Of a stretch of DNA of 64,000 bases, positions 4,056-62,654 are shown piece after piece (the stretch's first letter is position 1; each line of letters begins with the position of its first letter). Source of the stretch: a virus; IMG/VR virus record IMGVR_UViG_3300001102_000006, one strand, 5' to 3'. The notes under the pieces are model-generated. The model saw nothing but the letters and a program-made list of their open reading frames with translations, was not told where the DNA came from and ran no database searches. The position numbers and the translations under genes were made by a program.

Positions 4056-4375
4056 AGGTGATCCTTTGCCATCGTACGAAGGTCCCCGGTCAATTCGGTG
4101 ACCTTTTCGGCAACGTTGTCAGTAGCGGATTTCTTGTTCTTGGCGTAGCTCGGGTCGATCAGGCGGATCATGCCGATTAGTGACCAACCAATAGTGGCAC
4201 AAATGAAGAACAGAATTCCCCACAAAGCCGTGTATCCGAGCGCTGCAAGAAACAGCCCAAGAACGCCAATCACCAATCCCGCAATTCCAAGGAAAAATGT
4301 GGTTCCCAGAATTGCAACGATCACTGCACCCACGATCTTATGGATCAGTGCAAAAGGCTTTACGTACCACTTCAT
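4052..4375 (-). CDS. Hypothetical membrane protein
   Basis: Long hydrophobic stretch; stop/start overlap with neighbours. Confidence 0.7.
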   Translation of the reverse strand: MKWYVKPFALIHKIVGAVIVAILGTTFFLGIAGLVIGVLGLFLAALGYTALWGILFFICATIGWSLIGMIRLIDPSYAKNKKSATDNVAEKVTELTGDLRTMAKDHL

Positions 4376-4638
4376 TCGACGTTCTCCTTCCCAAGCAAGG
4401 CGTCGAGCGCCTTCATGTCGTCCGCCGTCACCAATAGTGTGGCGGTGTTATCTCTCCCAATGCCGATTGTGACAACTTTGTAGGTCGGATCAATCAGATC
4501 AATACGCTGTGGAGCCGGTTGCGGTGTGCAACCCTCAATGAGAATGTCCAAGGCTTGAAGCTGTGCCCGTTCGCGGTTTGCAGCGTCAAGTTGTTCTTTA
4601 CGGTCCCGAACTTTTTCGGCAATGGTTTGCTGTGTCAT
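4372..4638 (-). CDS. Hypothetical protein
   Basis: GGAG RBS before MTQQ; overlaps the downstream gene. Confidence 0.65.
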   Translation of the reverse strand: MTQQTIAEKVRDRKEQLDAANRERAQLQALDILIEGCTPQPAPQRIDLIDPTYKVVTIGIGRDNTATLLVTADDMKALDALLGKENVE

Positions 4639-4701
4639 TCTGTCTCCATACAATAAAAATACGGGCGGTGCAAGAGAAAACTTGCGCCGCCCGTATTTAA
4701 T

Positions 4702-6099
4702 TTAGATTGCTGCCCGTTGACGGATGGTTTCAAAGTCGTCATCCACCTTGAGTACGCCGTCCAGATAGACGGTTCGCAACTGGTCCGCAATCCCGTGACC
4801 CATATTGGTAGGGATGTCGTCAATCCGGCGCGGAACGTACTCGCCGTCGATCAGCAATACAGCCTGACGGCCTCGCTTGGACTTCTTGCCTTGGTCGGTA
4901 ATCGGGTCTTTGTAGACATCCAACCAAACGCCATCGACTTCGACCGCATTGGCCTTCATGGCGTACTTGCAAGTGTCTCGATCAACTTTTTGAAGAAGAC
5001 CGCCGCCCATGCCCATGGCAAAGTTTGAGATAGAGATTTTGCGCTCCATCGCATTCATGCACAGGCGGGTCAGCGTTTCGACAGTCATGCCGTCGCCTTG
5101 AATGACACGGACTTGATCCGGCAAAACCTTGTAGCCTTTTGAGTTCACGGTGTAGCCAAATTGCTCCATCAGGATATCGATGATGTCCAGTGGCATTGTA
5201 GTGGGATCACCACTGTCCGGACGAACGACCAGCGCCCCTTCCCGTGCCAGCACAACATCTTTGAGTTCCTTGCCCCAGTATTCGCGGGTGGCCTTGAATA
5301 CGTTGTAGCTGTCGGACACGCAGGCGACAAGTCCTGTTGGATGCTTTTCGAGCAAGTTGCGGAACATGTCAAGCTCGCCGTCACGTCCCCAAGAAGTCAC
5401 AGTGCTGTGTTCCGTTGCAGGGATCGAGAAGCCTACAGGACCATCCGCATTGTAGTAGGACATAGCCCCAATCAATGCTTCAACCGTGTCGGTGCCCATG
5501 AAGTTGACAAGGTGCCCCAGTCCGCCCAGCATGGCGGCTTCGGAACAGGTCGCGCCGCGCGCGCCAAAGTCGTGAAGCTTAAATCCAATTTCTGCATCAG
5601 GATCATCGGCTGTCATCGCCAGACCGGCATAGATCACTTTCTTTGCCTTTCGGCTCAGCGATGCAACGGTAGAAGGGTACCAAACGGCGCGCAGCATTGC
5701 GGTCTCAACATAAGAAGTCAACCACGGGAAACGTGGGTCCGTGTTCACCACCTGCACTTGCGGAATTCCCGGCTGCGTGACGGTGCCTTCGGGCAGTGCC
5801 TTGATCTCGATAGGAAGCTTGCCGTTGGGCAGGCTGGCGATCTGCATCCAACCTTCGTAGTTGAATGGCATCCCGTGTGCTTCAAACAGCTTGCTTGCCG
5901 CCTGAACATCTTCGTGCGTGACCGGCGTCATCAGGTATTCTTTGATGAATGCTTGCAGTCCGAAGAAAACGACCTCATCAAATTCGCCGCCACGCGGCTC
6001 GATGTAGGACGAAACGCGTGTCGCGCCTTCGGGGTATTGCAGGAAGTGTGAAGCTTTGTAGCTGTCGGTACGGGTGATTGGGGTAAGTAGCTTGTGCAT
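4702..6099 (-). CDS. nadV: Nicotinamide phosphoribosyltransferase (NAMPT)
   Basis: TDSYKASH, LHDFGARG, SIPATEHS, CVSDSY, VRPDSGDP, IQGDG, GMGGGLLQ motifs; start moved to MHKLL after the AGGAG RBS. Confidence 0.95.
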   Translation of the reverse strand: MHKLLTPITRTDSYKASHFLQYPEGATRVSSYIEPRGGEFDEVVFFGLQAFIKEYLMTPVTHEDVQAASKLFEAHGMPFNYEGWMQIASLPNGKLPIEIKALPEGTVTQPGIPQVQVVNTDPRFPWLTSYVETAMLRAVWYPSTVASLSRKAKKVIYAGLAMTADDPDAEIGFKLHDFGARGATCSEAAMLGGLGHLVNFMGTDTVEALIGAMSYYNADGPVGFSIPATEHSTVTSWGRDGELDMFRNLLEKHPTGLVACVSDSYNVFKATREYWGKELKDVVLAREGALVVRPDSGDPTTMPLDIIDILMEQFGYTVNSKGYKVLPDQVRVIQGDGMTVETLTRLCMNAMERKISISNFAMGMGGGLLQKVDRDTCKYAMKANAVEVDGVWLDVYKDPITDQGKKSKRGRQAVLLIDGEYVPRRIDDIPTNMGHGIADQLRTVYLDGVLKVDDDFETIRQRAAI

Positions 6100-6146
6100 G
6101 AGAAAACTCCTTTCTCGGTTGTTGTCGCAGGGTCTATCCCTTTGAC

Positions 6147-7166
6147 TTAGATGCCCACCATCGTCTCGATGATGTCGTAGTGATCTTCGAACATAGCGTC
6201 CCGGCGAAGATTTGCAATGGGAACCCATTGCGCCTTTTCGGCGTCGTCCGAACCTTTGATCTTTGGCAATTCTTCTGTCTGCCGAAGCTCAAATTTGTAG
6301 GCGGTGGTAATTGTTCGCCCGCGCTGTGATCGGAAGGGGTCTTCAAAAACACGCCAAGAGCGTATGGAACCCTGCAAGACTTTATCCGGAACAGAGATGC
6401 GCGTTTCTTCGCGAAGCTCTCGAACCGCCGCTTCTCGCGAAGTTTCATATTCGTTGACGAACCCACCCGGAATAGCCCAAAGACCTTTCCCCGGCATAGC
6501 GCCACGTTTCACAAGAAGAATATGACCGGCCTGAACAACAACCGCGTCAGCGGTGAAGAAGGTGGGGGCATACGGAGCAACGGACCACTGCTTTTTGTAG
6601 TCTTGAATGAAATCGTGCTCTGCACAAACCTCTTTGTAGGCGTCCGTGTACCGCCAGTCACGCATAAACGCCTCAACTTCGACCGGTAGTCCGCGCGGCA
6701 TCCCGTTTGGATTGAAATATTCCCGGCGGATATCGGTCGCGTTCAGGTTGTCAAAATTGATGACTTCTTCGTGCTCCCACGTAGGGAAGGCTTTCAGGTA
6801 GAAGCTGGATGCATCTTTCGAATGCCCAATCAATCCAGTGCGAACTGGGTCAGGCGTGAACGGCGTGTTCGCCACGGTCATCGCACTCGACTGGACCCCG
6901 CCAATCCAGCGGTCCATGTTGTATGTGTGATCCACTTGGGGACAGAAGTGCAGACGACCTTGTTCCACCTCGTTCGGATAGACGCGGCTGATCATGTCGA
7001 TGCGTTCTTGCGTGGTAAACGGGTTTCGGGCACTGCGCGGCTGTTGGTCACTGCCTATCACAAGCGCGACTTTTCGTGCGCGTTGCAAAGCCGTATCCAC
7101 AACAAATTTGTGTCCCAAATGAAAAGGCTGGAATCGCCCAATAAAAGTCAAAACGTCATAATTCAT
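6147..7166 (-). CDS. nadM: Bifunctional NMN adenylyltransferase / ADP-ribose Nudix hydrolase (NadM-Nudix)
   Basis: IGRFQPFHLGH (HxGH), RNPFT, NATDIR and Nudix box PGGFVNEYETSREAAVRELREET. Confidence 0.95.
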   Translation of the reverse strand: MNYDVLTFIGRFQPFHLGHKFVVDTALQRARKVALVIGSDQQPRSARNPFTTQERIDMISRVYPNEVEQGRLHFCPQVDHTYNMDRWIGGVQSSAMTVANTPFTPDPVRTGLIGHSKDASSFYLKAFPTWEHEEVINFDNLNATDIRREYFNPNGMPRGLPVEVEAFMRDWRYTDAYKEVCAEHDFIQDYKKQWSVAPYAPTFFTADAVVVQAGHILLVKRGAMPGKGLWAIPGGFVNEYETSREAAVRELREETRISVPDKVLQGSIRSWRVFEDPFRSQRGRTITTAYKFELRQTEELPKIKGSDDAEKAQWVPIANLRRDAMFEDHYDIIETMVGI

Positions 7167-7198
7167 GTGAAAACTCCTTTCACGTTTTATGCTCTGAT

Positions 7199-7747
7199 CT
7201 ATTCAGAGACTTTGTTCTTACCTACTCTGTTTATCCAAGAAATAAACTCGGAAAAGTTCAATGTACTCTTTGCACGGTTACAAACATCGCAGCAAGGAAC
7301 CGTATTTTCCGATGTATATCCTAACTTGTTATCTTTTCTATCTATTCCATTAAACTTTATTTCCGACGACACATAACTGGAACGTGCCCGATCTCCGCAC
7401 ATACTATATTCAATGCCACAATAGTGGCAGGGGCTTTTCAACTTAGAATAAAATTCCTCATCAGAAACATCCCAGCGTAATTCTCTTGAAATTGCACCTC
7501 GTAAATATCTGTCTTTTACTCGACTTAAAACAGCCATCTCCGCGTTTTTTGATCGCCAAATTTTTTTAGACAGGCATCCACAATTCGGTGTGTGAAAGTT
7601 TTTTAAGTATTGTTTTCTTTTCTTTGTTGTTTTGCCACAACTACACTGACAAACGTACAACCATTCAGGCTTACCTTCGTATCCAACTACTGTTAGTTCG
7701 CCAATTTTAGAACCTAGTGTTATTTCAGAATGTTTCGGTGGCTGCAT
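7199..7747 (-). CDS. Free-standing HNH homing endonuclease
   Basis: CQCSCG, CHYCG, GIDRKDNKLGYTSENTVPCCDVCNRAK; visibly AT-rich relative to flanks. Confidence 0.85.
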   Translation of the reverse strand: MQPPKHSEITLGSKIGELTVVGYEGKPEWLYVCQCSCGKTTKKRKQYLKNFHTPNCGCLSKKIWRSKNAEMAVLSRVKDRYLRGAISRELRWDVSDEEFYSKLKSPCHYCGIEYSMCGDRARSSYVSSEIKFNGIDRKDNKLGYTSENTVPCCDVCNRAKSTLNFSEFISWINRVGKNKVSE

Positions 7748-7768
7748 GTATGCAATTTAACAAGAAAC

Positions 7769-8266
7769 TTACGCCATGTCAAGCGTAAAAATACTACATG
7801 GTTTACTGTTTTTTGTAACAGACACAACTTCTCCCCCTGTTCCGTCATCCAGATCAATGGCAGCACGAACGGCGTTTATGGGAGTCGCACCTGCGTGCAT
7901 AGCTCCCAAGGCAAAGCGTGCGCCGCTACCTATGGCTTCGAATTCTTTCCCCCATAGGGGTGATCCGTTACCATCCGCCGCGAAATACCAAAGCGGGCCT
8001 TTTCCATCATTTGGGGCAAGCAAAACAGTAATGCCCGAACTACCCGCGTCAAACTCCGGCGGTTCTTTGTAGAATTCATGCAAGGGTGTGTCGCCTTTAC
8101 CCAAAATCCAATCATACATAGGATGAGCAAACGGATACGCACCCGAAAAACCCATCATAAATCGATCAGTCTTGGCAAGCTTGGGGACACCGTAATTGAT
8201 GTCCCCAGACCATGAACCCATGGTGTCCGCCGCCATGACCCCATCGCGGTATGCAATTGTCGTCAT
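7769..8266 (-). CDS. HslV/proteasome-beta-like Ntn peptidase
   Basis: N-terminal MTTIAYRDGVMAAD, AIGSGARFALGAM, AAIDLDDGTGG. Confidence 0.8.
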   Translation of the reverse strand: MTTIAYRDGVMAADTMGSWSGDINYGVPKLAKTDRFMMGFSGAYPFAHPMYDWILGKGDTPLHEFYKEPPEFDAGSSGITVLLAPNDGKGPLWYFAADGNGSPLWGKEFEAIGSGARFALGAMHAGATPINAVRAAIDLDDGTGGEVVSVTKNSKPCSIFTLDMA

Positions 8267-8748
8267 GTGTTGAGCACCCGAATTTCGTTCCAGCCTTCGC
8301 CCAGCATAGGTTCTACCATGGAAGATTTCATCGATTCATCGATATGCGGTGGAATGACTTTGCCGGGACGTTGACGAAGACGCTGTTGACGCACGTCCTC
8401 ATCACACTGAACGACAATCAAAACCGTATAGTACGACGCTGGAATTTGTGTCAGAACACCCCGACGCTTTTTGCGAGTCAGGTTGGTTTGATCCCAAACA
8501 ATCGAGGTCTTGTCTTTCAACGCCTGCCGGAAAGCACTATTGACAGTGCCCGTGGCATCTTTGATCGCGTCAGGAAACGCCTCGGAATAGGTGATGCCTT
8601 TCCAGCGCGCAACGTCTTCGATCAAGTCATCCGTCGAAAGCTGGATGAAGCTAGAGGGGACAGACTGCCGAAAGGTGGACTTCCCGGAACCGGGAAGACC
8701 CATGAGCATGACAAAAATCGGGCCATTGTGTTTGATGGTATCGATCAT
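8263..8748 (-). CDS. P-loop kinase (polynucleotide kinase-like, AAA_33)
   Basis: GLPGSGKST, LSTD, VWDQTNLTRKKR; directly downstream of the RNA ligase. Confidence 0.85.
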   Translation of the reverse strand: MIDTIKHNGPIFVMLMGLPGSGKSTFRQSVPSSFIQLSTDDLIEDVARWKGITYSEAFPDAIKDATGTVNSAFRQALKDKTSIVWDQTNLTRKKRRGVLTQIPASYYTVLIVVQCDEDVRQQRLRQRPGKVIPPHIDESMKSSMVEPMLGEGWNEIRVLNT

Positions 8749-10007
8749 TCAAAGTCTCCTTTCTCTTTCCAAGCAGTCTCAAAGTTATTGAGATTTGCCG
8801 CCATAGCCACATTTTCTTTCATCTCCTGCCACTTGGTTTCAGAGACCAAGCCGCCGGTAATGACACGATCCGCCGCTTCCGAAGCGTCTGCAATTTTGCC
8901 GTCCCACATGGAGAAAACAAGAGAAGCTTCGAGACGGGTCATCGACTTGGCCCCCTGCGGGCTGATAGCAAACGACTTCTTGTCGTCGTAGCTCAGACGC
9001 GCGTCCTTGTAAAGAGCCGCAATGTCGTCCCGAAGCCGTTCAAAACACCACCAGAACCGCTTGATGTACGCTTCCACGTCCGCGCGGTCTTCCGCAGAGA
9101 CAAGAGGAAGAAGGTCGTCCACCGTGCCTTCACGAATTGCCGTCACCAGAGTCCGCTCCGTGCGGGACGCCTCTTTGACGCGGTGAAGCGTGCTATAGAT
9201 GTCCGTCTTGACCTTGGCGCGGTGACCGTTCTCCCATTGAATCACGATGCCTTCGTCCAAATCATCGCTTTCTTTGACAGCCGACAGGTAAACGGTCGGG
9301 TCGCCCTCGACAGGATCATAGGTGCGCACAGTCGGAATGCCGAACAGTTCCGCTTGGCGGTCAACTTGTTCGGGCGTCAGATACCAACCCTCACGGTTGT
9401 GTCGAATTGCCAAAAGAACCATGTCTTCGGCATATTCCGCCACAATGCGGTTGAACGGACCAACGTATTCAAACATTGGCGTCCAACCGTGTGAGATACA
9501 GAATTCTGCGAAGCCAACGTAGTCACGTTTGTCCCCGGCAACAAAGTCTTCGGCCCACATTGCCGTGTCCGTGATTCCCATCTTGGTTCCCCAGCGAATG
9601 CCCGCAGGGGTTGGCAAAGGGCGCACCATGGAGCCATCCAATTTGTCGAGGACCCAGTGACGTGCAGAGAAGTCCAGAACGCCTACGTCCATGTCTTCGC
9701 GTTCTCCCACATTGAAGAATTTGTGGAAGGGGCGAGACACAATGGCACCAGTTTCAGTGTCGAATGCAATTCCTCGGCACTCCCGGCGCACGGCGGCGCG
9801 CTGCCACTGAGACCGTGCATAAGCAATGTCCCACGGGTCATCGGATTTTGGGGCAGGAAAGGCAGGAAAAGTGTCATTGCCCATCTTGACATAGTTCACA
9901 AAGGTGTGCCCGCTGTCCTTCTCGACAACCCGGAAACAATCGGCGTCCACATGCACGCGAACATCGTCAAGGTGCTCAATGCGCGGAAATGAATAAGTGA
10001 CAGACAT
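8745..10007 (-). CDS. T4 Rnl1-like RNA ligase
   Basis: RECRGIAF, PFHKFFN, motif I DKLDGSM, TPMFEY, DEGIVI, KVK. Confidence 0.9.
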   Translation of the reverse strand: MSVTYSFPRIEHLDDVRVHVDADCFRVVEKDSGHTFVNYVKMGNDTFPAFPAPKSDDPWDIAYARSQWQRAAVRRECRGIAFDTETGAIVSRPFHKFFNVGEREDMDVGVLDFSARHWVLDKLDGSMVRPLPTPAGIRWGTKMGITDTAMWAEDFVAGDKRDYVGFAEFCISHGWTPMFEYVGPFNRIVAEYAEDMVLLAIRHNREGWYLTPEQVDRQAELFGIPTVRTYDPVEGDPTVYLSAVKESDDLDEGIVIQWENGHRAKVKTDIYSTLHRVKEASRTERTLVTAIREGTVDDLLPLVSAEDRADVEAYIKRFWWCFERLRDDIAALYKDARLSYDDKKSFAISPQGAKSMTRLEASLVFSMWDGKIADASEAADRVITGGLVSETKWQEMKENVAMAANLNNFETAWKEKGDFE

Positions 10008-13925: not shown

Positions 13926-15074
13926 TCAGGCATTCACAACCATTTCCAAAAGATCGTCTTTCTCGGCTGTAAGGCCAGTTTCGATCCATATTTCTTTTGC
14001 ATCTTGCAGCGCTTTACCCATTTCTGGGCCGGGTTCAAAACCAAGCTGCATTAGATCGGCTGCCCGCACCGGGAATTGTGCATTCTCGCCACGCGCCGCT
14101 TCTCCGTGGCTCCATCCACCACAGCTTATTCTCAGCGCGTGTGCATCTTTTGCCACAAGCTTCCCATAAAGGTGCGTAGATACAGCAATTGGGTACTGCA
14201 TGTCAAGTGCTTCTGCAATTTTATCGAGATGTTTCTGCTCATTGTTTGCGTGAGGAAACGGAATTGCATTGCCGTGCAAGGCGTAAAAACGCCGTGTCCA
14301 GCTTGCGGAAAAAAGATTTGTCCGTTCTGCCATTTGCACAGCAAAGAAAGCTTTCATGTCGGCGTTAGGCAGAATTTCTTGCAGAACACCTAAACGGTTC
14401 ATTTCTGCAATAGCTTGAAATGGCTCAGGCAGATCAAGAATCTTTTTCAATTCAGACCAAACACGCTCTCCGCTGACAACCGTTGGCAGAGCGTACTTGT
14501 GCTTCCACGCCGCGTTAGCGGCGTCTGGGTGAAGCTCATCGATTCCGTATTTGGCGTGAAACCGAAACAAACGCATGATGCGAAGATAATCTTCACGGCA
14601 ACGCTGTTCGGCGTCCCCTACAAAACGTACTACGCCCTCCACGATATCATCAACACCTGTACCGGTGGGATCGTAAACGTTGCCACCTCGATCCATGTAC
14701 AGCGCGTTCATGGTGAAGTCTCGGCGCTGGGCGTCTTCTTCCATTGTCTTCGCAAACTCTACCGTGGCACGGCGTCCATCTGTGGCGACATCATAACGAT
14801 AGGTCGTCACTTCAAAAGTCTGATCACCTTTGCAAATTGTGATCGTGCCATGATCAATTCCCGTAGGATACGTCTTGAACCCGAACCACTTGAACATCTG
14901 CAAAAGCTTGTGTGGCGGAGCGTCCGTCGCAATGTCAATATCATTGCAGGGTACTTCCGCAATGGCATCTCGAACACAACCTCCAACCGCATAGGCTTCA
15001 AAGTTATGTTGTTCAAGAACCATGCAAGCTTCTTGAAACTCAGGCAGGGACAGCCATGGCGGAGAGAATTTCAT
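13926..15074 (-). CDS. cca: CCA-adding enzyme / class II tRNA nucleotidyltransferase
   Basis: VGGCVRD, DIDIAT, EVTTYR, RRDFTMNAL, EDYLRIMRLFRF, SGERVWSEL. Confidence 0.92.
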   Translation of the reverse strand: MKFSPPWLSLPEFQEACMVLEQHNFEAYAVGGCVRDAIAEVPCNDIDIATDAPPHKLLQMFKWFGFKTYPTGIDHGTITICKGDQTFEVTTYRYDVATDGRRATVEFAKTMEEDAQRRDFTMNALYMDRGGNVYDPTGTGVDDIVEGVVRFVGDAEQRCREDYLRIMRLFRFHAKYGIDELHPDAANAAWKHKYALPTVVSGERVWSELKKILDLPEPFQAIAEMNRLGVLQEILPNADMKAFFAVQMAERTNLFSASWTRRFYALHGNAIPFPHANNEQKHLDKIAEALDMQYPIAVSTHLYGKLVAKDAHALRISCGGWSHGEAARGENAQFPVRAADLMQLGFEPGPEMGKALQDAKEIWIETGLTAEKDDLLEMVVNA

Positions 15075-15466
15075 ATTGTTTTCCCTGTAACCAGTGCGTC
15101 AAGAAAATCAACAACGAGTTGATTGATCGTCGGCGCGCGTTCAGGCAATTGAGAAAGACCAGTTCCCAAGCCATCTGCCGGGATGATCAGTAGACGCCCG
15201 CGTGAGCGGGCATCGAATGCCTTGAGAAAGTCTTCTGTGATGATGGGTGAAATGCGTTCGAGATCATCATCCGAAAAGAAAGACGTTTCACGATTGTCCG
15301 GTGCCCACTTTGTAGCGATGCCGATTGCATTGGGTTCGCCGCGCATTGCGGCTGCTTGTCCGCCCATACCTTTACGGCGCACGTTGTCCCCAAACAGAAA
15401 CACTGCGTTCGGGTTGTTGCGCAGGTCGTCGCGCTCAATCCATTTCTGTGTGTAAATTTTCACCAT
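15071..15466 (-). CDS. Conserved phage protein (FLFGDN...GMGGQA family)
   Basis: FLFGDN, GGQAAAMRGEPNAIGIATK, DGLGTGLSQL motifs. Confidence 0.65.
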   Translation of the reverse strand: MVKIYTQKWIERDDLRNNPNAVFLFGDNVRRKGMGGQAAAMRGEPNAIGIATKWAPDNRETSFFSDDDLERISPIITEDFLKAFDARSRGRLLIIPADGLGTGLSQLPERAPTINQLVVDFLDALVTGKTI

Positions 15467-15575
15467 ATCATTGCTCCCACCACAACACCGGCACCAAACA
15501 CAAGTGCAAGGGCGGCAAAAACATACGGAGCGACGGGACCCATTGCCATGAGCATAAGACGGACGTAATCAAACA

Positions 15576-16277
15576 TCATGATGCTTTATTTTCCTCCATC
15601 CATTTAGTCGTTGCAGTGTTGATCAGGTCGAACAGGTCGTTCGGACGCTGGCGAGAATCACCTTGCACGACATTGATTTCTTCGCAGGTCAGGCCAAGCG
15701 GTGCCCAGACTTCATCGTTGTGCCCTACTGTGAGATTTGGAGTCCCGTAAAGAGCAGACTTGCGTGTCCATTCTTCCAGCTTGAAGGCGAGACGTGCTTT
15801 CGGTGTGTTGGCTTTGCCTTCTGCCCGAACATGCCCACGCATCATCGCACAGAAGACGAGGATGTCCCCGCACTTGTCACGCCATTCCGCAGTCTTGCGT
15901 TTGCCACGTTCCTGCATTCCAATGAGATCGGCCTGCCTCTTGATGATGTCACCGGCGACAGCAGCCGCATACGACATACTGCGCATGGCATCTTCGATAT
16001 CAAGTTCTTCGCGGTGCGTGTGAGGCTCACGCAGCGTGTACATTCTGCCCCAGTTCCGGCGATTCAAGGCGAAGTCGATGACCATATCGCCATCACAGTC
16101 GCGCTGATACTTCGCCTCAAGGATGTCTGCGAACACTTCTGAAAGCTCCCGCAGATCATCGTCTGTCACAGGAGGCCAACTGGCGTCCTGTTCCAGAATA
16201 GGATTCTCAAGGAAGGCTTTGACTTTGGTAACAACCGCGTCCGCAGTTGGGCCTTCGTAATTCAGTGGCTCGGGCAT
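15576..16277 (-). CDS. Hypothetical protein
   Basis: AGGAG RBS and its own promoter. Confidence 0.65.
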   Translation of the reverse strand: MPEPLNYEGPTADAVVTKVKAFLENPILEQDASWPPVTDDDLRELSEVFADILEAKYQRDCDGDMVIDFALNRRNWGRMYTLREPHTHREELDIEDAMRSMSYAAAVAGDIIKRQADLIGMQERGKRKTAEWRDKCGDILVFCAMMRGHVRAEGKANTPKARLAFKLEEWTRKSALYGTPNLTVGHNDEVWAPLGLTCEEINVVQGDSRQRPNDLFDLINTATTKWMEENKAS

Positions 16278-16439
16278 GTGGGTCTCCTTCTGTGGGTTTC
16301 CCTACAGATACGAGTTCACCAACGATTCGTCAAGCCCAAAAGGAGAAGTTCTGGATGGTCATAATAGATCGAATGCGGCACTGTGATGAGGCCAATAGAC
16401 GCCGCCACGACAATCAGATAGCTAACAATCACACGCATA

Positions 16440-17042
16440 TCAGACCTCCAAGTCAAGGTAACTGTTGATACCAAGGCACACAAATCGCGTACCATTGACC
16501 ACACGGTCCACATCCTCGTGCCAGTGCCCGAAGACCCATGTCTCAGGCTGATGCCGCTGGAACATGCCTTCCAGCGCCTCTGCGGTGCGTGTCTTGTACT
16601 GCTTCTTGCTGGTGCCTGCGATAAAGAAATCTAACGCCACAGACGTGGGGCAGTCATGCGTCACGACAGTTTTTGGTTTGTGATAGACCATGAGTTCGTG
16701 CATGCGTACTAACTCAGAAGTGGAAAGTTCTTCGTCGTACCACCAGTTCAAACCGGGTGTTCGGATGCTGTGATCGATTGACCAAGCCCCGCCAATGTAG
16801 AGGATGCCGCGCTCATCGTAAGTGCCGTCCTCAATATATCCGACACGCTCTTTGCAACGTCCCGGATCGTCGTGATTGCCACGAATGAATTTATGTTGCC
16901 CGTCTTTGTGCAACTCGTCCACAAACTCGTCATCTCGGATGAAACCGATTCCAAAGTCCCCTACCTGCACGCTTTCTGTTGCCCCTGCAATCAAAGGCAT
17001 GTAGCTATATAGGTCTCCGTGAATATCACCGATCAGTCGCAT
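16440..17042 (-). CDS. Calcineurin-like metallophosphoesterase
   Basis: GDIHG, VGDFG, RGNHD, VTHDCP, FGHWH. Confidence 0.92.
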   Translation of the reverse strand: MRLIGDIHGDLYSYMPLIAGATESVQVGDFGIGFIRDDEFVDELHKDGQHKFIRGNHDDPGRCKERVGYIEDGTYDERGILYIGGAWSIDHSIRTPGLNWWYDEELSTSELVRMHELMVYHKPKTVVTHDCPTSVALDFFIAGTSKKQYKTRTAEALEGMFQRHQPETWVFGHWHEDVDRVVNGTRFVCLGINSYLDLEV

Positions 17043-17068
17043 TTGTCACATTTCTTTTGTGGGGCTAA

Positions 17069-17575
17069 TCACTTAGCCCGATTGAGTATCTTGCGCAATG
17101 CTTCGGCGTTTCCGCGCGCATCATCCAAGGCGTTGTGGGTGTGTTTGGTGTCACGCAGGCGCTTCCACTTAGAAGCTGCCCCGACCTTGCCCTCAAGACC
17201 GGCGTAAAAATCACCAATGCGGCGCATGCTCCAACCCATTGGGTTACCGTCTGTGTACAACCACAGGTATCCATTGACAAATTGCCAATCAAAGCCGGGA
17301 TTGTCTGACCAAACCGGAATTCGTTTGCCGCCGTAAGTTTCCCGAAGCCAGCGATTGAAGGCGAGAACACCAACGCGAGGATCAGGATACTTTTGGATCG
17401 TGCTTTCGCTCAATCCGATTGCTTCGAGCGCGCGGGGATCAATGTCCCGACCTTCAAGCGGACGCATTTCCGCGTAAAAATCATTTCCTTCCAGATCGAC
17501 AGCGCCGATCTGGATCATTGAGTGCGTCATGGCGCTTCCGCCAGTAGCCTCTACATCTATAACAAGTCCATTCAT
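17069..17575 (-). CDS. DEDDh 3'-5' exonuclease (Rv2179c-like exoribonuclease)
   Basis: IDVEATG, DNPGFDWQF, HTHNALDDA. Confidence 0.88.
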   Translation of the reverse strand: MNGLVIDVEATGGSAMTHSMIQIGAVDLEGNDFYAEMRPLEGRDIDPRALEAIGLSESTIQKYPDPRVGVLAFNRWLRETYGGKRIPVWSDNPGFDWQFVNGYLWLYTDGNPMGWSMRRIGDFYAGLEGKVGAASKWKRLRDTKHTHNALDDARGNAEALRKILNRAK

Positions 17576-17606
17576 GTGCCCGTCCTATCATGCAGAGATT
17601 GAGATG

Positions 17607-18251
17607 TCAAGCGTAAACCGCTTCATCCTGCGCCTGCGCTGCCAAATGCTCCGCCAACACCCCAGCAAATTGTTCTTTGCTCATTTTGGAATATGCCTTG
17701 CGGACACCGGGCAAGCGCATGGTTTGGACGACAGAAACCTTACGGGGTGCCTCATCGAAAACCTTGCGGACGATACAGGGCAATTGATCGTACGCTTCCA
17801 TTTCAGCCGCTGCAACACGTTTCAAAAGATTAGACATTTGGCACCTCCACTTTGGCAAAATCATTGCGAACAACGTGTTCTTCGTCGGTCACACGAAAAT
17901 TTCGGTTCCTTTTCAGTATGCGCACGAACATGCTTTTTGCTGTGAAGCGCGAAACCACACACAAGCGGGATTCTGCGTTGCGACCTGTTGTGCTGTAAAA
18001 GATGTGATCACCTACGACCACATCCTTCCCGAGAAAGTCTTTCATACTGGTGCGCATCAGACAACCACCCCATTCAAAGCGTTGCGAGCGCACGTCTTAC
18101 CGAAGGGATAGCCACCCAGATCATCGTGGCCTTCCGGGATGTCATCGTGATCCGCGACGTATTTGTCATCGGTATTGTCGTAAACAAGCCAGACCGTCTT
18201 CGTCGGGTCCAGTGTTCGTCCGCAGCAGTGGCAAGTAAGTCTCTCGGTCAT
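17607..18251 (-). CDS. Three small hypothetical ORFs (17607-17840, 17830-18057, 18057-18251)
   Basis: Tightly coupled ORFs with RBS. Confidence 0.55.
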
Positions 18252-18324
18252 GGGTTCCTCCTTGTAGCTTGTCTCTACACTAAGCCACCCATGACCGATT
18301 CGTCAAGACCTTTTTTGCTCTATC

Positions 18325-19137
18325 TTACTTTTCGAATATGAACGCAGTACGATCCTCTAGCCCTGCCCAGTCTACGGCTTGGCGTGTGATTTGTGTACGT
18401 GTGACCAGATCATTGCGTGGTGGGCGGTGGTCAGCGGGGATGGCGGTCCATTCGCGTTCGGTGAGCTTACGTTCTACTGTCTCACGGTAGAAGGTTCGGC
18501 CAAAGCGATCTTCGGGAGACACCACTTGATAGAAGTCCGGACCACCCGCGTCGATGACTGCTGCTATTTGCTCAGCAGAACTCAGTCCCTGCATCTTTTT
18601 GTGGCTCATATGTGATCGAGCGAAAGAAGATACTGCATTCTTTCTGGCGTCGAGAAAACGCCACAAAACAGTGTTTGCTGCTTCCATCTGGCTTGGAACA
18701 TTCCAAACACGGCAATCAAAATGAGGGCATGCGCGCACAGCAAGCGAGCGCGTATTGTCGCTCTGCTTCACAAGCTCGACAGCAAATTTACTGCTGGCCA
18801 TGCCTGCGAGCACACTGCAAAGCTTCTGTGTTCGCCCATCAAAAAGCATCTGTGCCGCCGGGTTTTCTTCCCGATCTACATACCAAACAAGTGTGATTTC
18901 GTCTGATTGCGTGTAGCCGATACTTGCATGGGTCTCACGCACAAGGTGCGCGGTTGTAGCGTCCATTACGGCTGTTACGCGCTTGTCAAACGGCTTCTCA
19001 AAAGGCTTGGTGAACTTGGAGAAAGACCGCCCGTCAATACGTGCAACCACAGGCAGGGTGGTATCCAGCCGCCGATGGGCTTCGACGCCTTCGTATTCTT
19101 TCATGCGGTCGCCTAAATCGTCTTTACTCATCATCAT
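18325..19137 (-). CDS. thg1: tRNA(His) guanylyltransferase-like protein (Thg1/TLP)
   Basis: RIDGRSFSKFT, YTQSDEI, FDGRTQKL, FDCRV, DARKN. Confidence 0.93.
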   Translation of the reverse strand: MMMSKDDLGDRMKEYEGVEAHRRLDTTLPVVARIDGRSFSKFTKPFEKPFDKRVTAVMDATTAHLVRETHASIGYTQSDEITLVWYVDREENPAAQMLFDGRTQKLCSVLAGMASSKFAVELVKQSDNTRSLAVRACPHFDCRVWNVPSQMEAANTVLWRFLDARKNAVSSFARSHMSHKKMQGLSSAEQIAAVIDAGGPDFYQVVSPEDRFGRTFYRETVERKLTEREWTAIPADHRPPRNDLVTRTQITRQAVDWAGLEDRTAFIFEK

Positions 19138-21113: not shown

Positions 21114-21884
21114 GTTATTCCTCTTTGTCGTCAGAAATTGAAAAGACTGCGGGTTGCCCCGTGCGTACGCATGTGCGCAGACCAGCGATTATTTGCTCCG
21201 TACGCATGCGTTCAACGTGTCGCGCAATGCTGTCAGGCATTGCGTATGACGCTTCTGCAAGTCGCCCACTTTGGACGAATTGTTCCAGCAAATCTGCCAA
21301 CGCCCCCGCGTCAGCGGGCATGATGACGCCATCATCGCTCATGTGAAACAGCATGACCAGCAAGGGATCATCAGGCGTTTTGTTCCAGCGCCCCATTGCG
21401 TTGTCTTCGGTCAGCCCTTCTAACGGCAGAATCGGTGCCTCAAAAGAAACTCCATCTACTGTCTGCAACTCCATTGTGTATCCGGCAGCGCGCGCGACAA
21501 GTGCTCGCCATTGCAGGAACGCCATCGGGCTTCCCGTATCAGCAGTCCAGCACCCGTTTGAAATCTCAAGCTGGGCCATGTGCATCATACCAATCGTGAA
21601 GAACGCCAACCCAATCGATGCCGGTGCCATCAAGGTAATGCTCAGCGTTGGCAAATGCCCACTTGTGAAATGCCTGTTGCTGATCGGCGTCAAGTTCTGC
21701 GTATTCTTGCTCAACAATCAGCGTATCGCAAATATCTTCGAGAACGTCTTGCTGTGCTCCATATCGGTTCGCAAGGGTTTTTGTCAGTTCGGGCATGGTG
21801 GACCTCCTTTTGATTCGCTCTTGTTCAACGTAACAGGCTTGCCTGCATACTGCAACGGAAAAGGGCCTCCGCAGAGGCCCCAAA

Positions 21885-22604
21885 TCACTGAACGATTTCG
21901 TCTTCTTTGGCCACCATCGCCTGTAAGTCTTGACGTTGATCGGGTTCTTTGAGGCAGTAACCCCGCCCCCACACAGTGGAAATCAAACCGTCCGCGCCTG
22001 CTTCTGCGAGTTTTTTGCGCAGTTTACAGACAAAAACGTCCACAATTTTGACTTCGGGTTCATCCATGCCACCATACAAATGGTTCAGGAAGTGTTCTTT
22101 TGTGAGCGTAGTGCCTTTGCGCAGCGAAAGAAGTTCGACCATGCCGTATTCTTTGCCGGTCAGGTGTACCGGAGCGCCATACACGGTCGCGCTCTTTGCA
22201 TCCAGATCAACGACAAGGGGTCCGGTCTCGATTGTGGCGGATGAATGTCCTTTCGACCGGCGTACAACCGCCGTAAGTCGAGCAAAAAGCTCCACACGAT
22301 GGAAGGGAAGACCCATAACATCGTCAGCGCCTTCGGACAGAAGGGCGGCTGTTTCATCCGGATCGACAACGTTAACAAGGCACACGACTGGCGTGTGGAT
22401 GCGTGAGTTGCGTAGCCGGGTCAAAGTTTCTCGGGAGCCAAAAACGCCCAAGTTCATCAAGATCACATCATAGTCATATAGCGATGCCAGATCAAACGCT
22501 TCGTCAGCGGCGTCGGCAATGTACGGATTGAACCCCTTGCTGGACAAGGACATTTCAAGCAGGTTCGCCCGAGCAAGATTGTTTTCTACAACGAGGATTC
22601 GCAT
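21885..22604 (-). CDS. ctrA: CtrA homologue with a degenerate (non-phosphorylatable) receiver domain
   Basis: C-terminal HLTGKEY.M.ELLSLRKGTTLTKE.FLNHLYGGMDEPE.KI.DVF.CKLRKKL...TVWGRGY is nearly identical to CtrA; receiver has ENN for EDD, N at the D51 position and GLPF for TKPF. Confidence 0.93.
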   Translation of the reverse strand: MRILVVENNLARANLLEMSLSSKGFNPYIADAADEAFDLASLYDYDVILMNLGVFGSRETLTRLRNSRIHTPVVCLVNVVDPDETAALLSEGADDVMGLPFHRVELFARLTAVVRRSKGHSSATIETGPLVVDLDAKSATVYGAPVHLTGKEYGMVELLSLRKGTTLTKEHFLNHLYGGMDEPEVKIVDVFVCKLRKKLAEAGADGLISTVWGRGYCLKEPDQRQDLQAMVAKEDEIVQ

Positions 22605-22654
22605 TGTCTTCTCCTAGATATTTCAAGGGGGTGTAACTCAGTTTCTGCGTCTTG

Positions 22655-22669
22655 TCAAGCTCTTTTTAA
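22655..22669 (-). promoter_or_regulatory. Near-consensus CtrA box (TTAA-N7-TTGA) overlapping the -35 of the ctrA-like gene
   Basis: Minus strand GGTTAAAAAGAGCTTGACA. Confidence 0.5.
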
Positions 22670-23071
22670 CCTATCAAGTTCTCGAACTTCATCGACAATG
22701 CTTTGGACAAGGTAGTCAACCATGTAGGCCAGCGTCTCGTCGGCTTCACGGTTTACCGGCACCCCCAATGATTCACATATGGCTCCGGCGACATGCACAC
22801 TCTCGTGCGCCACAATCCCAATTCGTGGATTGGGCTGATTGAACAGAATGTAAAAGTAGGGAAGACCAGCGTCATTAAATATGGCACCGGCTTCCGCGTT
22901 AGCGGTGTCACTGAAATCTTCATCATCCAAGCGAATAGAGAAATTCTTTTTCGCGTAGCGAACAAAGTCTTTCCGAGAAAAGAAAACACCAACATCTGTT
23001 TTGAAGACATCAAGTGTAATCCCGAAAAGAGGTGCCTCGGGCTTTTTGAGTTTCAGGGCGTGTGTGCTCAT
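22655..23071 (-). CDS. Hypothetical protein with HExxH motif
   Basis: IVAHESVHVAG...EADETLAY. Confidence 0.55.
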   Translation of the reverse strand: MSTHALKLKKPEAPLFGITLDVFKTDVGVFFSRKDFVRYAKKNFSIRLDDEDFSDTANAEAGAIFNDAGLPYFYILFNQPNPRIGIVAHESVHVAGAICESLGVPVNREADETLAYMVDYLVQSIVDEVRELDRLKRA

Positions 23072-23203
23072 CGAATTTGAAGTCCACCCAGACACGAACG
23101 TGTGTACGTATCCCAGTGTCCTCCTTCAATCTCACATTTCAGGATGTACGCCGAACTGATGACGAACATCAGCAGGCACACAATTCCAAGTGCGTACCAA
23201 AAC

Positions 23204-37618: not shown

Positions 37619-39388
37619 CTATCCAGTTGTGTTGACGACGATCAGGCGTGCATGCGTTTGCAGCACATCAGCGATTGTCGGGTGATATTTTTGAGCGAGC
37701 GCCGCGAATTGTGACGCCTCAAACCCTGTGAGTTCGACCAGTTCAAAGCTGTCATACCAGCAATCAATACTCGCCAAGCGTAGGCCAACGCCGCCGGTTT
37801 CGTACCCGAATTGGAATTCGTTGATATAGTCATCCTCGAATTCGTAGTCCTTTCCAAGAACCGGATCAGGCAAAGAGATTTGAACGCCGCCGCTCAATAC
37901 CAATACGCGGTGTGATTCATTCACCTCGCGCTCATATGGTTCTCCCGTCATCTCATTGTAACGGGTGACTTTGCGCGGCGTCTTGGCGTACACAAACGGC
38001 ACGCCATACATCACGGTTGCAGAAGGATCGACGCCCATCAGCTTGCCATCGCAGCGATAAGCATGTGTCCGCCACCCATCAGGATGAAAATCAAAAATCC
38101 CCATCCAATAAGATTCCAAAAGTCTCCCATACAGCCTCCTACAGCAGTGCTTCCGCGTCTGCCTTATTCGTGTGAACGGACAGCACAGTCTTTGTGACCT
38201 TGCCCATGAAATGGACGATCTCGACTAGTGCCCATCCGCGTTTGTGCTTCTCGACCCTCCGCTGACCTTTCGGTAGCGGATGGGTGCGAGGGCGAACCAT
38301 TTGTACCGGTGACACCGGCTGGACCATGTTCGGGTTCATCAGAACCAGAGAACGAAGCCGTGGATCACGCCGACAGGCGGGACGAACGTGCCGATGATGC
38401 CCAGCGTGATCTGTCCGCCAGTCGCACCGAGGTCCGATGCAAGGGTCTGAACGATCCAGATGACGTGCGTCAGCCATGCGCCGAGGACAGCGAAGAAGAA
38501 TGCGATAACAGCCAGAAAGCCGCCAAGGCCGAGTTTTTCCGAAAGTGACATGTAAGAACCTCCTAATGATTCGTTGTTGATGAGACCTATGTATCAGGTC
38601 AAGAAGTTGCGCGCAACCTATAATCTGTATGTTTGTCGCATGAAGGGCATATCGTCCTCACTTTTGACGTTGACCAGACAGGCATTGACCCACGTCTTAT
38701 CACCGGACGGCAACGTTCTCATGTGTCCCCGGCGATAGTGCGGGCGCGGTGATTTACCGTCACCGGTATCGCGGCTGTCGCCGCGTTGATAGGATCGAAG
38801 GGCTGTGAAATAGTTGTTGTCGGGCTTATGATATCCGGCACGATACACGCGCTTGCCTTTTGCTTTGGGAGGCGTTGTTTGCCATCCCACGCCTTTTGTA
38901 TTCAGCACAGAGACGAGATTGTAAATCACCGACCGCATCGAAACGGTTTCGTCTTCGGATGATTGCCGAATTGGCTCCATATCTTTGTCAGAGAATACGG
39001 TAATGCCTATAATCAGAAAGCCTTCACGTTCATGCGTGAAAGAAATAGCGCATACTTCTCCAATCTCATGGGTATAGAAAACCAACACGCTATAGCGGTG
39101 CAAATTCTCTTTCGATTGAAAAGTGACCAGCCACGGTTCTTGGAAAGGCAGAGACGCAATTCCTTCTTGGAACAATTCCATTCCCAAATAGGCTGTGTCA
39201 ATAAAACTCTGGGGGTCCTGTTTTCCCAAATCAAATACACGGCCCGTTAGGGCCGATTCAATTAGCAATTCATTTGTGCCAATGAATAGATCATTCGGCA
39301 GCATGAATTCCAATTCTTTCAATGCCCCGAATAGAGGCTTAGGCTGCGCCAATTGCGACAGGAATACTTTTTGATTTGCAATGAACAT
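37619..39388 (-). CDS. Hypothetical ORFs (37619-38119, 38339-38551 membrane, 38618-39388 with PRPHYRRGH motif)
   Basis: ORFs with RBS. Confidence 0.55.
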
Positions 39389-40683
39389 CAGACAATCCTC
39401 ATAGCCTTTGCAAGCGGGCTTTCTTCTACTTCGAATTCATATAGGGGTATGCCTCTATCCCAACCCGTGAATTCGGCATTGTGGAAAGTGTTGAGGGGTA
39501 GAAAGCCATTATCGCCCGCGTAGCGGGACTTGGGATCACGTCCCGCGATGTAATCAATTGCCCGTGGCAATGCCCACGTTCCGCGTGCATTCCGTCCTTT
39601 TACAGTGAGAGCACGTGCCAACGTGTCCGTCACATTCATGTCGATCCATTTGATCCCAGTGACATCCAGTCGCCCAATCGGATTATACTGCCCGTCAAAC
39701 CTTACTGGTCCGCGCTGTTTTTCATCTGACAGAAAGAAAGACGGCGGCAAGAGGTCAGACACTTCTGCCCATACCGGTTCAATGTCGAGTTGATCTTGTA
39801 TCTCATAGATAAAGGCGGGCATGCGTCCGACCCACACGAAAGCGTGGATGAAAGGGTCTTTGTCCAAAGCAACCCAAATGGTTTCGTTCTCTAACCCGTC
39901 TTCGGCGCAACCTTTACACGGCATTGACGTACGCAGAGAATTGTGGTTTATCACTTGCTGCGTGCCACACGTCAGACATTCATATGTGTTTTCGACCACG
40001 TGCCGAAAGCCGCGTTCCCGTCCTTGCATCGCTTTGACAGTTTTGCGCGGGCGACACGTTTGGCACAGTGTCTGTCCAACTCTTTTATCCAGCCGCTCCC
40101 GAATGTATTGTGGACGCATCCAAACATCGTGACCGTTTTCACAAACCAAATGCATCTCATCTTTTTGTGAGACCCACGCCGAGTCATGTGCGATATAGCA
40201 GCCCACAACATTTGGATGCAGAAGTTTCTGTGCTTCAAGCTGCGCCGCCAAGTTCTCACGTGAAGCAAGCCGCCGCGTCTCAATTACCATCTCATCGACA
40301 TCAAGTCCGGCGAGCATTCGCATCTGACGATACAATGCATTATACCAACGCTGTGTCTCGTAAGCGATTGCACTTAATGACGGCACGTGTTTATATAGGT
40401 AACTATCCGTCACATCCCGTGCCAGCGCATCCCCCATCTCCGTGAACACAGCAACAATCACATCGGTTTGCACTTTATGCCGCGCGCTACGCGCGTGTCT
40501 ATAGAGTGTCTTGCCGGTGCGTTGCCAGTTCTCCAACACGTCATCTGGCATATCTTGACCTGTGTGAGGCACACCGACCTCGACACATATCTGCGCACCG
40601 CTGCGCATTGGGTGGTTAGAAGCAAAGTCGGTACAGGCAAGCTTAGCAACACCTATGGCGAATCGTTGTACGGCGTATGTCAT
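39388..40683 (-). CDS. Zn-ribbon-containing hypothetical protein
   Basis: CENGH, CQTC, CLTCG, CKGC; preceded by a CtrA box. Confidence 0.6.
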   Translation of the reverse strand: MTYAVQRFAIGVAKLACTDFASNHPMRSGAQICVEVGVPHTGQDMPDDVLENWQRTGKTLYRHARSARHKVQTDVIVAVFTEMGDALARDVTDSYLYKHVPSLSAIAYETQRWYNALYRQMRMLAGLDVDEMVIETRRLASRENLAAQLEAQKLLHPNVVGCYIAHDSAWVSQKDEMHLVCENGHDVWMRPQYIRERLDKRVGQTLCQTCRPRKTVKAMQGRERGFRHVVENTYECLTCGTQQVINHNSLRTSMPCKGCAEDGLENETIWVALDKDPFIHAFVWVGRMPAFIYEIQDQLDIEPVWAEVSDLLPPSFFLSDEKQRGPVRFDGQYNPIGRLDVTGIKWIDMNVTDTLARALTVKGRNARGTWALPRAIDYIAGRDPKSRYAGDNGFLPLNTFHNAEFTGWDRGIPLYEFEVEESPLAKAMRIV

Positions 40684-40707
40684 GGGGCATCCTTACATGC
40701 AGGTCGG

Positions 40708-40722
40708 TTAAGACTAAGTTAA
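40708..40722. promoter_or_regulatory. CtrA box TTAA-N7-TTAA
   Basis: TTAA GACTAAG TTAA, 25 bp upstream of the 40683 start. Confidence 0.55.
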
Positions 40723-41188
40723 GCCAGAGACCATTATTTCTGTTGATAGATTTTGAACAAGCGGCGGCTCAGGCGGACACTCTAAACAAAATAGGGTCCA
40801 ACCCGGTGATCTTGGGCAATGCAGTATGTTATATTTACGAAAGTAACGCCTCACCCGGTGATCTGATATGCGCACCGCAGGCTCTCTTTATTACCAATTC
40901 ATTTATTTTTATTATGACTCTCTCTGAAAGAATCTAGGTTTCTTACTTAAATATAACAATTCTATTTGTACAAGTCTACCGGGTAACGGGTTACTTTGGT
41001 GAAAATAACTGCTCGGATTTGAGGCACTTACCGGTCGCATAAATACGACAGTATTTCGGTTGACATGCGCAAAGGACCTGTGGTAGTGGTGCGTGGTCAC
41101 GTGACGAATCGTGAGGAACAATGGATGGCTGCGTTTCCTTACACCCGCGTCAGCGGGTGATGCAGTCTTCTGTGGATATGGAGATAGA

Positions 41189-58346: not shown

Positions 58347-58361
58347 TTAACAGAGTATTAA
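58347..58361. promoter_or_regulatory. CtrA box TTAA-N7-TTAA(C)
   Basis: GTTAACAGAGTATTAAC, intergenic, upstream of 58458. Confidence 0.6.
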
Positions 58362-58457
58362 CAAATCTGGACCGGGACAAGAACATACCGTAAAATAAGG
58401 TACTTGACACAAATTTATCTGTACGTTACATTCACAAGACACAACGCAGGAGGACCC

Positions 58458-60733: not shown

Positions 60734-60754
60734 AAATTTAATAGAGAGGTACAT

Positions 60755-62644: not shown

Positions 62645-62654
62645 GAACCTTACC

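Follow-up and report, generated by a model that had tools for sequence, protein, structure and literature searches.

A phage-borne CtrA-like regulator whose conserved receiver lacks the residues of the phospho-switch

Introduction

CtrA is the central regulator of the cell cycle, motility, quorum-sensing-linked differentiation and gene transfer agents (GTAs) in Alphaproteobacteria. Phages that carry a version of this regulator have been described, viz., the roseophages of the RDJL-phi-1 type, which encode GafA together with a CtrA that has no receiver domain and keeps the activator domain (Fogg 2019, PMC6363796). Here we analyse a CtrA-like gene located in a 64,000-nucleotide stretch of phage DNA (IMG/VR record IMGVR_UViG_3300001102_000006; this whole stretch is hereafter called the window), whose product retains a receiver domain in which the residues of the phospho-switch have been replaced. 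An earlier reading of the DNA letters (hereafter the original prediction) had singled out this gene and suspected that a CtrA-like gene in an alphaproteobacterial phage may have precedent, and the RDJL-phi-1-type roseophages are such a precedent.

Other described systems bear on the function of a CtrA of this kind. The unphosphorylated CtrA of Rhodobacter capsulatus has been shown to bind at TTAAC-N6-GTAAC in the gafA promoter, with a dissociation constant of ~55 nM; in the same bacterium the non-phosphorylatable CtrA variant D51A increases GTA transfer, and unphosphorylated CtrA has been proposed to turn gafA on (PMC6363796). Phosphorylation-independent, atypical regulators of the OmpR family such as ChxR, HP1043 and GlnR are usually standing dimers (PMC3960148, PMC8345958, PMC12632262), and pseudo-receivers that are regulated by a ligand or a partner have also been listed in review (PMC12632262). 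Osp, a receiver-like protein of Rhodobacterales, inhibits the kinase CckA directly (PMC9430884). Phages that attach to pili or flagella of Alphaproteobacteria have genes controlled by host CtrA sites, an arrangement termed 'lytic deferment' (Mascolo et al. 2022, PMC9437464), and Roseobacter denitrificans evades the flagellotropic RDJL phages through mutations of the CtrA phosphorelay (Li et al. 2026, PMC13392355). A literature search, which was not exhaustive, found no description of a full-length phage CtrA with a dead yet conserved receiver.

Results and Discussion

Identity of the CtrA-like protein and loss of its phospho-switch

The CtrA-like protein comprises a receiver-type domain, a winged-helix domain and a short tail (Table 1). 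Both domains score above their Pfam gathering thresholds, the receiver marginally (Response_reg, PF00072; 31.4 bits against a cut-off of 30.2) and the DNA-binding domain clearly (Trans_reg_C, PF00486; 66.7 bits against 26.2), and the protein thus belongs to the OmpR/PhoB family. Its best NCBIfam match is the Rhodobacterales CtrA model NF045991 with 280.5 bits, followed at a distance by PhoP with 111.8 bits. Since the former score lies below the cut-off of 350 and the phospho-switch residues are gone, we do not count the protein as a member of the CtrA equivalog; by this best match and by alignment it is nevertheless CtrA-derived, and it is phage-borne, being encoded in phage-type contigs, as the original prediction had proposed.

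Alignment with bacterial CtrAs reveals six replacements at positions of the phospho-switch (canonical numbering: D8N, D9N, D51N, S79V, Y98V and K101L, corresponding to N8, N9, N51, V77, V96 and L99 of the phage protein) and a deletion of two residues, the PD of GLPDM, immediately after position 51. The motifs on which the original prediction rested its claim of a lost phospho-receiver are all present, namely ENN at residues 7-9, ILMNLG with N51, V77 at the switch, GLPF with L99 and the C-terminal EDEIVQ, and to these the alignment adds Y98V and the PD deletion. Among the closest homologues outside the phage clade described below, D8, D51 and K101 are present in all 116 and Y98 in 115 of 116, and the pattern of loss is therefore far from what chance would produce. 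From the residues present, phosphorylation of the phage protein at the canonical site would be impossible.

The two domains have diverged from bacterial CtrAs to different extents. The receiver is 42% identical to that of bacterial CtrAs, whereas receivers of bacterial CtrAs from different orders are ~74% identical to one another; for the DNA-binding domain the corresponding values are 72% and ~81%, so that the description of this half as nearly unchanged was roughly right. The core of the recognition helix, DVFxCKLRKKL, and the GGMDEPE loop are both invariant in an alignment of 14 sequences.

Table 1. Positions in the window of the CtrA-like gene and its parts, its putative expression signals, the CtrA-type boxes and the GafA-like gene
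Feature	Position	Strand	Basis or remark
CtrA-like gene	21885-22604	-	open reading frame (ORF), 239 aa plus stop; protein P0001
Pseudo-receiver, residues 1-117	22254-22604	-	alignments, AlphaFold2 model, selection
OmpR/CtrA-type winged-helix DNA-binding domain, residues 118-222	21939-22253	-	Trans_reg_C at residues 143-218
Variable C-terminal tail, residues 223-239, ending EDEIVQ	21888-21938	-	alignment, low pLDDT
Promoter-like site	22630-22658	-	-35 TTGACA (22653-22658), 17-nt spacer, weak -10 TACACC (22630-22635); conserved in the clade
Shine-Dalgarno sequence AGGAGA	22610-22615	-	upstream of the CtrA-like gene; strong
Terminator-like hairpin with T-run	21852-21881	-	immediately behind the stop codon; stem of 8 pairs (6 G-C) in a terminator scan
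Box TTAAC-N6-TTAAC, exact	40707-40722	-	intergenic; ORF 39388-40683 starts 23 nt further on
Box TTCAC-N6-TTAAC	48433-48448	-	precedes the operon that runs from 48398 to 46090 on the minus strand
Box TTAAC-N6-TTAAC, exact	58347-58362	+	intergenic, 41 nt before ORF 58404-58970
GafA-like gene, 270 aa	46090-46902	-	convergent with the large terminase gene; Pfam DUF6456, 27.2 bits, cut-off 26.3

Predicted structure and dimerisation

The AlphaFold2 model (mean predicted local distance difference test score, pLDDT, of 83.6) consists of a (beta-alpha)5 receiver with pLDDT values of 85-94 and a winged helix, followed by the tail with low values. The modelled receiver superimposes on the receiver of Brucella CtrA (PDB chain 4qpj_C) with a template modelling (TM) score of 0.93 and a deviation of 1.3 Å, and other fold matches include PrrA, PhoP and DrrD. 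With the receiver fold kept in the model and the phospho-accepting Asp absent (N51), the domain qualifies as a pseudo-receiver, and the protein fits among the atypical pseudo-receiver regulators of the OmpR/PhoB family.

Folding two copies of residues 1-120 together gave a score of 0.53 against 0.16 for the best control, a mark attained by 21 of 30 proteins whose solved structures are pairs and by none of 23 solved as single chains; we count this result only as consistent with dimerisation, because such a pass can stem from the memory that the model has of solved relatives. The predicted homodimer interface (residues 70-119) is the alpha4-beta5-alpha5 face, as in active OmpR/PhoB dimers. Residues invariant in the phage clade cluster on the same face (T85, L88, L89, G92-V96, P100, H102, E105, L106, A108, R109, R115 and R116), on which helix alpha4 is clade-specific and helix alpha5 is still CtrA-like.

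The altered receiver is common to a clade of phage proteins

Large protein searches found five relatives that stand above the mass of ordinary CtrAs, making six proteins with that of the window. Four of them are 91% (P0002), 64% (P0003), 64% (P0004) and 61% (P0006) identical to the window protein over the full length, and P0122 is 52% identical to it over the receiver. Relatives with visible context lie in syntenic phage DNA, on contigs of up to 114-120 kb and 87 kb, and have the same neighbours as in the window (Thg1, RNase T, CCA-adding enzyme and thioredoxin). When placed in a tree together with 27 bacterial CtrAs, the six phage-type proteins are monophyletic with a Shimodaira-Hasegawa-like approximate likelihood ratio test (SH-aLRT) support of 100 and a long stem of 1.65. 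The stem lies outside the CtrAs sampled from Rhodobacterales and Sneathiella, and the tree, whose forks there are open, does not single out a donor lineage. A scan of metagenomes with receiver-specific patterns returned only canonical CtrAs of 39-46% identity and no new member of the clade.

None of the six members has D51 (N or S instead), Y98 (V instead) or K101 (L, T or V instead), and the deletion of two residues is present in all of them. The acidic pocket varies among them (ENN, DND, NGD and NDD), as does the switch position (V, T or A). The universal loss of the former three residues and the variability of the pocket and the Ser/Thr position indicate that the phospho-switch was lost before the clade diversified and that the other catalytic residues have been drifting since.

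The closest pair, the window gene and that of L008, differ little at non-synonymous sites, the proportions of non-synonymous (pN) and synonymous (pS) differences being 0.050 and 0.65 in the receiver and 0.029 and 0.70 in the DNA-binding domain. Synonymous sites are near saturation already in this pair, and the ratio of non-synonymous to synonymous substitution rates (dN/dS) of more distant pairs is unreliable for the same reason. With non-synonymous differences this low and synonymous sites near saturation, we do not observe a relaxation of selection over the two domains, which the original prediction had named as grounds for its own refutation. Thus, by alignment and substitution pattern, the whole phage clade has the changed receiver as a conserved state under selection, and the coordinated inactivation of the receiver emphasized in the original prediction extends to six proteins.

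The tail evolves fastest, being 56% identical in the closest pair against 92-95% for the two domains. Three of the six clade members end in TA, NA or RA, and the sampled bacterial CtrAs mostly end in AS, AA or GA. The original prediction took the EDEIVQ end for loss of an AA-type degron that would stabilise the protein; given that the tail varies across the clade and half of the members end in Ala, stabilisation by this route is not supported.

Other CtrA-like proteins without D51 were seen outside this clade, in the IMG/VR loci L013, L016, L018 and L019 and in the Logan contigs L104 and L105. L013 has D51N and has lost the conserved Lys, L016 has D51E, and L018 and L019 are very degenerate. 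P0124, with D51N and a long C-terminal extension, adjoins DUF3310 and GapR-like genes; P0214 lacks D51 and lies on a short contig of small ORFs, a context too small to judge; and P0216 also lacks D51. The neighbours of the D51-less CtrA-likes of the IMG/VR loci and of P0124 are phage-typical (DNA methylase, DUF2800, a DnaA_N/HTH_36 protein, DUF3310 and GapR-like), and their occurrence beside such genes suggests that CtrA may have been uncoupled from phosphorylation repeatedly in phages. The viral-classified contigs L010, L011, L012 and L014, which may be phage DNA or host DNA at the edge of a prophage, carry CtrA genes with an apparently intact phospho-site, with Glu at position 51 in L014.

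Phage setting of the gene

The window is part of an uncultured large marine phage of ~146 kb (145,870 bp) related to DSS3-phi-8, from an algae-associated metagenome and with a trace in seawater. Its gene content is of the large-phage type (large terminase, DNA ligase, RNA ligase, a Thg1 homologue and a CCA-adding enzyme), with five tRNAs and ORFs that are mostly small and on one strand. The large terminase is 65-69% identical to the terminases of DSS3P8, vB_RpoS-V10, RpAliso, DSS3_MAL1, MD18 and RcXuper, all of them phages of ~146-150 kb, whose hosts include Roseobacter (DSS3P8), Ruegeria (vB_RpoS-V10 and RpAliso), Phaeobacter (MD18) and Rhodobacter (RcXuper). The assignment of the CtrA-like gene to a phage follows from this terminase and from the synteny of the relatives' contigs.

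No CtrA homologue was found in five cultured DSS3-phi-8-like relatives, in which the positive controls, Thg1 and a neighbouring gene, were matched; the equivalent interval of DSS3_MAL1 holds only small hypothetical genes. A megablast of 15 kb against cultured phages gave no close relative, and tblastn against 50,697 phage records gave no full-length CtrA-like gene except in a 4 kb fragment that is probably bacterial. For the neighbouring genes at 22655-23095 and 21115-21717, no homologues in DSS3-phi-8-like phages and no Pfam matches were found. Our search for transcripts found no RNA run containing the CtrA-like locus.

Expression signals of the CtrA-like gene

Upstream of all five clade genes with available DNA, TTGACA is invariant and TAnAnn occurs at the same spacing, while the flanks diverge; a consensus scanner does not call this promoter-like site because its -10 element is weak. 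Given the conserved promoter-like site and the terminator-like hairpin after the stop codon (Table 1), the CtrA-like gene looks like a transcription unit of its own that would be read by the sigma-70 polymerase of the host. Autoregulation was considered on account of a one-mismatch CtrA-type box over the -35 element (22655-22669) and rejected; its first half-site is absent from L001 and L002, and what is conserved here is therefore the promoter and not the box.

CtrA-type boxes and the GafA-like gene

Three CtrA-type boxes were found in the window, each of them located between genes and oriented like the gene that follows it. Exact TTAAC-N6-TTAAC occurs twice against 0.06 expected, a count reached in none of 100 shuffles, and the pattern TTMAC-N6-TTAAC, a variant defined after the sites had been seen, occurs three times against 0.13 expected. 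The box at 48433 lies 34 nt before the start at 48398, or 45 nt if translation starts at the ATG at 48387, which is preceded by a Shine-Dalgarno sequence. The sister contig L103, obtained from the run series that also gave L008, covers the places of two window boxes and has a box at each: its box at 16210-16225 corresponds to that at 40707 with flanks 69% identical, and its positions 8470-8485 hold the same 16-mer as the 48433 box. The five cultured relatives without a CtrA-like gene have one box of the TTMAC-N6-TTAAC type in 742 kb.

An enrichment of CtrA boxes over the whole window was not found: TTAA-N7-TTAA with at most one mismatch occurs 7 times against 14 expected. As a candidate for such global enrichment the half-site TTAACCAT was likewise rejected (1 against 1.4 expected), and only the exact extended box is over-represented.

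The operon behind the 48433 box ends in a gene that is GafA-like by its Pfam match (Table 1) and by a BLASTP expectation value of 8e-15 against gp38 of RDJL-phi-1. In a word search for its relatives, the sole match besides the window protein itself was one on L103 with 84% identity, and the gene was not found in the five cultured DSS3-phi-8-like relatives. It lies 24 kb from the CtrA-like gene and is a probable partner or target of the latter in a regulatory cascade. The idea, raised in the original prediction, that the CtrA-like protein could drive GafA-type late genes is made plausible by this gene and by the conserved box upstream of its operon.

Two further observations concern the 40707 box. 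It lies at the left edge of an AT-rich intergenic region of 427 bp (40684-41110), situated where gene direction switches from minus to plus; this region may serve as a promoter hub or as an origin of replication. The 431-aa ORF behind this box is followed directly by a minus-strand gene (38618-39388), whose homologue in L103 (17554-18324) has a Pfam AcrVA2-like match (PF26125); in view of this match and of its place behind the perfect box, the gene could be an anti-defence gene under control of the CtrA box.

A proposed mechanism and its alternatives

We consider it probable that the CtrA-like protein is a phosphorylation-independent transcription factor of the CtrA type, in which the pseudo-receiver has been kept as a dimerisation module and which acts on a few phage promoters, among them that of the GafA-like operon, and probably on CtrA sites of the host. 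Such a factor would no longer depend on the host CckA-ChpT phosphorelay. Its pseudo-receiver would now be a permanent dimerisation module, and therefore the protein would bind TTAAC-N6-TTAAC boxes as soon as it is made. It would then act on a few phage promoters, including that of the operon with the GafA-like activator, and probably on CtrA-regulated promoters of the host too, and the programme of the phage would thereby become independent of the phosphorylation state of host CtrA.

Several points weigh against this reading. DNA binding, dimerisation and the lack of phosphorylation are all things that we infer, and the dimer prediction may merely echo solved OmpR/PhoB receiver dimers remembered by the model. 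Boxes are not enriched globally, the TTMAC form was chosen after seeing the sites, and the DNA examined is 64 kb of the ~146 kb genome. The 48433 box is not a specific footprint, since the whole region around it is 89% identical in L103. The 40707 box is only 23 nt away from the start codon that follows it, a position more in keeping with repression than with activation. Lastly, replacement of the phospho-accepting Asp by Asn is usually inactivating and not activating in canonical regulators.

The last two of these points are also what would be expected of a dominant-negative competitor, which would occupy CtrA boxes or form mixed dimers with host CtrA without activating, and would thus shut down the host CtrA regulon (motility, GTA and quorum-sensing-linked genes) and repress some phage promoters: a receiver with Asn in place of Asp is as a rule held in its inactive form, and the perfect box at 40707 has a repressor-like position. 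Moreover, the recognition helix, being identical to that of CtrA, should compete for the same sites, and on the dimer face helix alpha5 has kept its resemblance to CtrA. The original prediction had suggested that such a mimic or competitor might also block replication initiation and division of the host. We nevertheless regard such a competitor as unlikely. The GGMDEPE loop, which connects helices 2 and 3 of the winged-helix domain and contacts RNA polymerase in OmpR-family activators, would be needless for a pure blocker and yet is invariant; the clade-specific residues of alpha4 (T85, L88 and L89) argue for a self-contained homodimer over mixed dimers; and a receiver-less domain as in RDJL-phi-1 would suffice, yet the receiver is strongly conserved.

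Purifying selection on the receiver is strong across the whole domain, beyond the dimer face, and helix alpha1 keeps A13, E17 and L20 in common with CtrA. This could be accounted for if the receiver were a decoy of the phosphorelay, docking on ChpT or CckA in the manner of an Osp-like titration or inhibition, or if it were a regulated pseudo-receiver that senses a small molecule or a partner and switches DNA binding. There are models for both, in the direct inhibition of CckA by Osp (PMC9430884) and in the ligand- or partner-regulated pseudo-receivers listed in reviews (PMC12632262). However, the loop after position 51, on the active-site surface expected to face the phosphodonor, is two residues shorter and the acidic pocket is gone, and a decoy does not need the intact CtrA DNA-binding domain, which is even more constrained than the receiver. 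No evident partner gene adjoins the locus, and the neighbours have no Pfam matches. These possibilities are in our estimate more doubtful still than the competitor.

Finally, a decaying host-derived passenger gene without function would agree with the score below the CtrA equivalog cut-off, the receiver that barely passes Pfam and the absence of the gene from the five cultured relatives, but it is highly improbable, as six divergent members all have an unbroken frame, the gene has a conserved promoter-like site and a terminator, the fold is confidently predicted and the selection analysis, with pN far below pS in both domains, effectively refutes decay.

Beyond the reading that we favour, a more far-reaching and rather doubtful proposal can be made. 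With its uncoupled CtrA, the GafA-like activator and boxes to match, the phage may carry a self-contained CtrA-to-GafA cascade of the kind used in GTA control, which would carry out part of the phage programme regardless of how the host phosphorelay stands and perhaps drive CtrA-regulated genes of the host as well. Such a cascade, if real, may be a living example of the phage circuitry that gave rise to GTA regulation, and the presence of a GafA-like gene and cognate boxes in one genome bears in any case on the phage origin of CtrA-GafA control of GTAs. Since several phage lineages have an uncoupled CtrA, and since Roseobacter hosts escape flagellotropic phages by phosphorelay mutation (PMC13392355), freeing CtrA from phosphorylation in different ways, with the receiver deleted in some and kept but dead in others, may be a recurrent counter-strategy of phages. 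The clade also offers a natural experiment on the roles of the CtrA receiver other than accepting phosphate, and on how phages seize, or escape, a master regulator of their host. Even as a plain constitutive regulator, the protein would add a clear-cut case to the pseudo-receivers, a class that is still poorly understood, and one for which the DNA motif is known.

Other features of the window

Auxiliary gene sets at 2907-10007 and 13926-19137 are common to the contigs of the relatives. They comprise a nicotinamide adenine dinucleotide (NAD) salvage pair, formed by a nicotinamide phosphoribosyltransferase (4702-6228) and a nicotinamide mononucleotide (NMN) adenylyltransferase-Nudix protein (6147-7166), together with an ATP-dependent DNA ligase, an RNA ligase, the CCA-adding enzyme (13926-15074) and Thg1 (18325-19137). 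A block of tRNAs (Glu, Phe, Cys, Pro and Met; 60658-63441) precedes a permuted transfer-messenger RNA (tmRNA) of the two-piece type, called by ARAGORN at 63571-64000 on the plus strand and running past the end of the window. An H-NS-type protein is encoded at 51420-51737 on the minus strand (Histone_HNS C-terminal domain, 46.9 bits) and also in the sister contig L103 (5543-5860).

Comparison with known systems

The phage protein has the same two-domain architecture and length as bacterial CtrA, an invariant recognition helix and a receiver fold that matches 4QPJ chain C with a TM score of 0.93. It differs from bacterial CtrA in the six replaced phospho-switch residues, the deletion of two residues and a variable tail without a conserved A/S end.

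The nearest phage counterpart is gp37 of RDJL-phi-1 (151 aa), whose gene follows directly on that of the GafA homologue gp38 and whose match to the window protein is confined to residues 147-222 of the latter (BLASTP expectation value 8e-27, 55% identity over 82 residues). Both are phage-encoded, CtrA-derived winged helices beyond phosphorylation control, with a GafA homologue in the same genome. However, the receiver has been deleted in gp37, whereas it is kept as a conserved pseudo-receiver in the window protein; the ctrA and gafA genes adjoin in RDJL-phi-1 and are 24 kb apart in the window; and the two phages belong to unrelated lineages, a 63 kb Xiamenvirus and a DSS3-phi-8-like phage of ~146 kb, respectively.

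ChxR, HP1043/HsrA, GlnR and CosR are likewise OmpR-type regulators with a degenerate receiver, which form constitutive dimers typically via part of the alpha4-beta5-alpha5 face, and HP1043 (PDB identifier 2hqr) and CosR are among the sequence or fold matches of the window protein. Those regulators are chromosomal and bacterial and are related to CtrA only at the family level (22-24% identity), whereas the window protein is a recent derivative of CtrA, borne by a virus and probably aimed at the DNA sites of CtrA. In the phages with 'lytic deferment' (PMC9437464), as in the window, phage promoters with CtrA-type sites tie phage expression to CtrA; there, host CtrA is used and the sites are dense in one region, whereas the phage of the window has its own uncoupled CtrA and three sites in 64 kb. 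Thus, the pseudo-receiver form described here is a new structural variant of a known theme, that of a phage CtrA uncoupled from phosphorylation.

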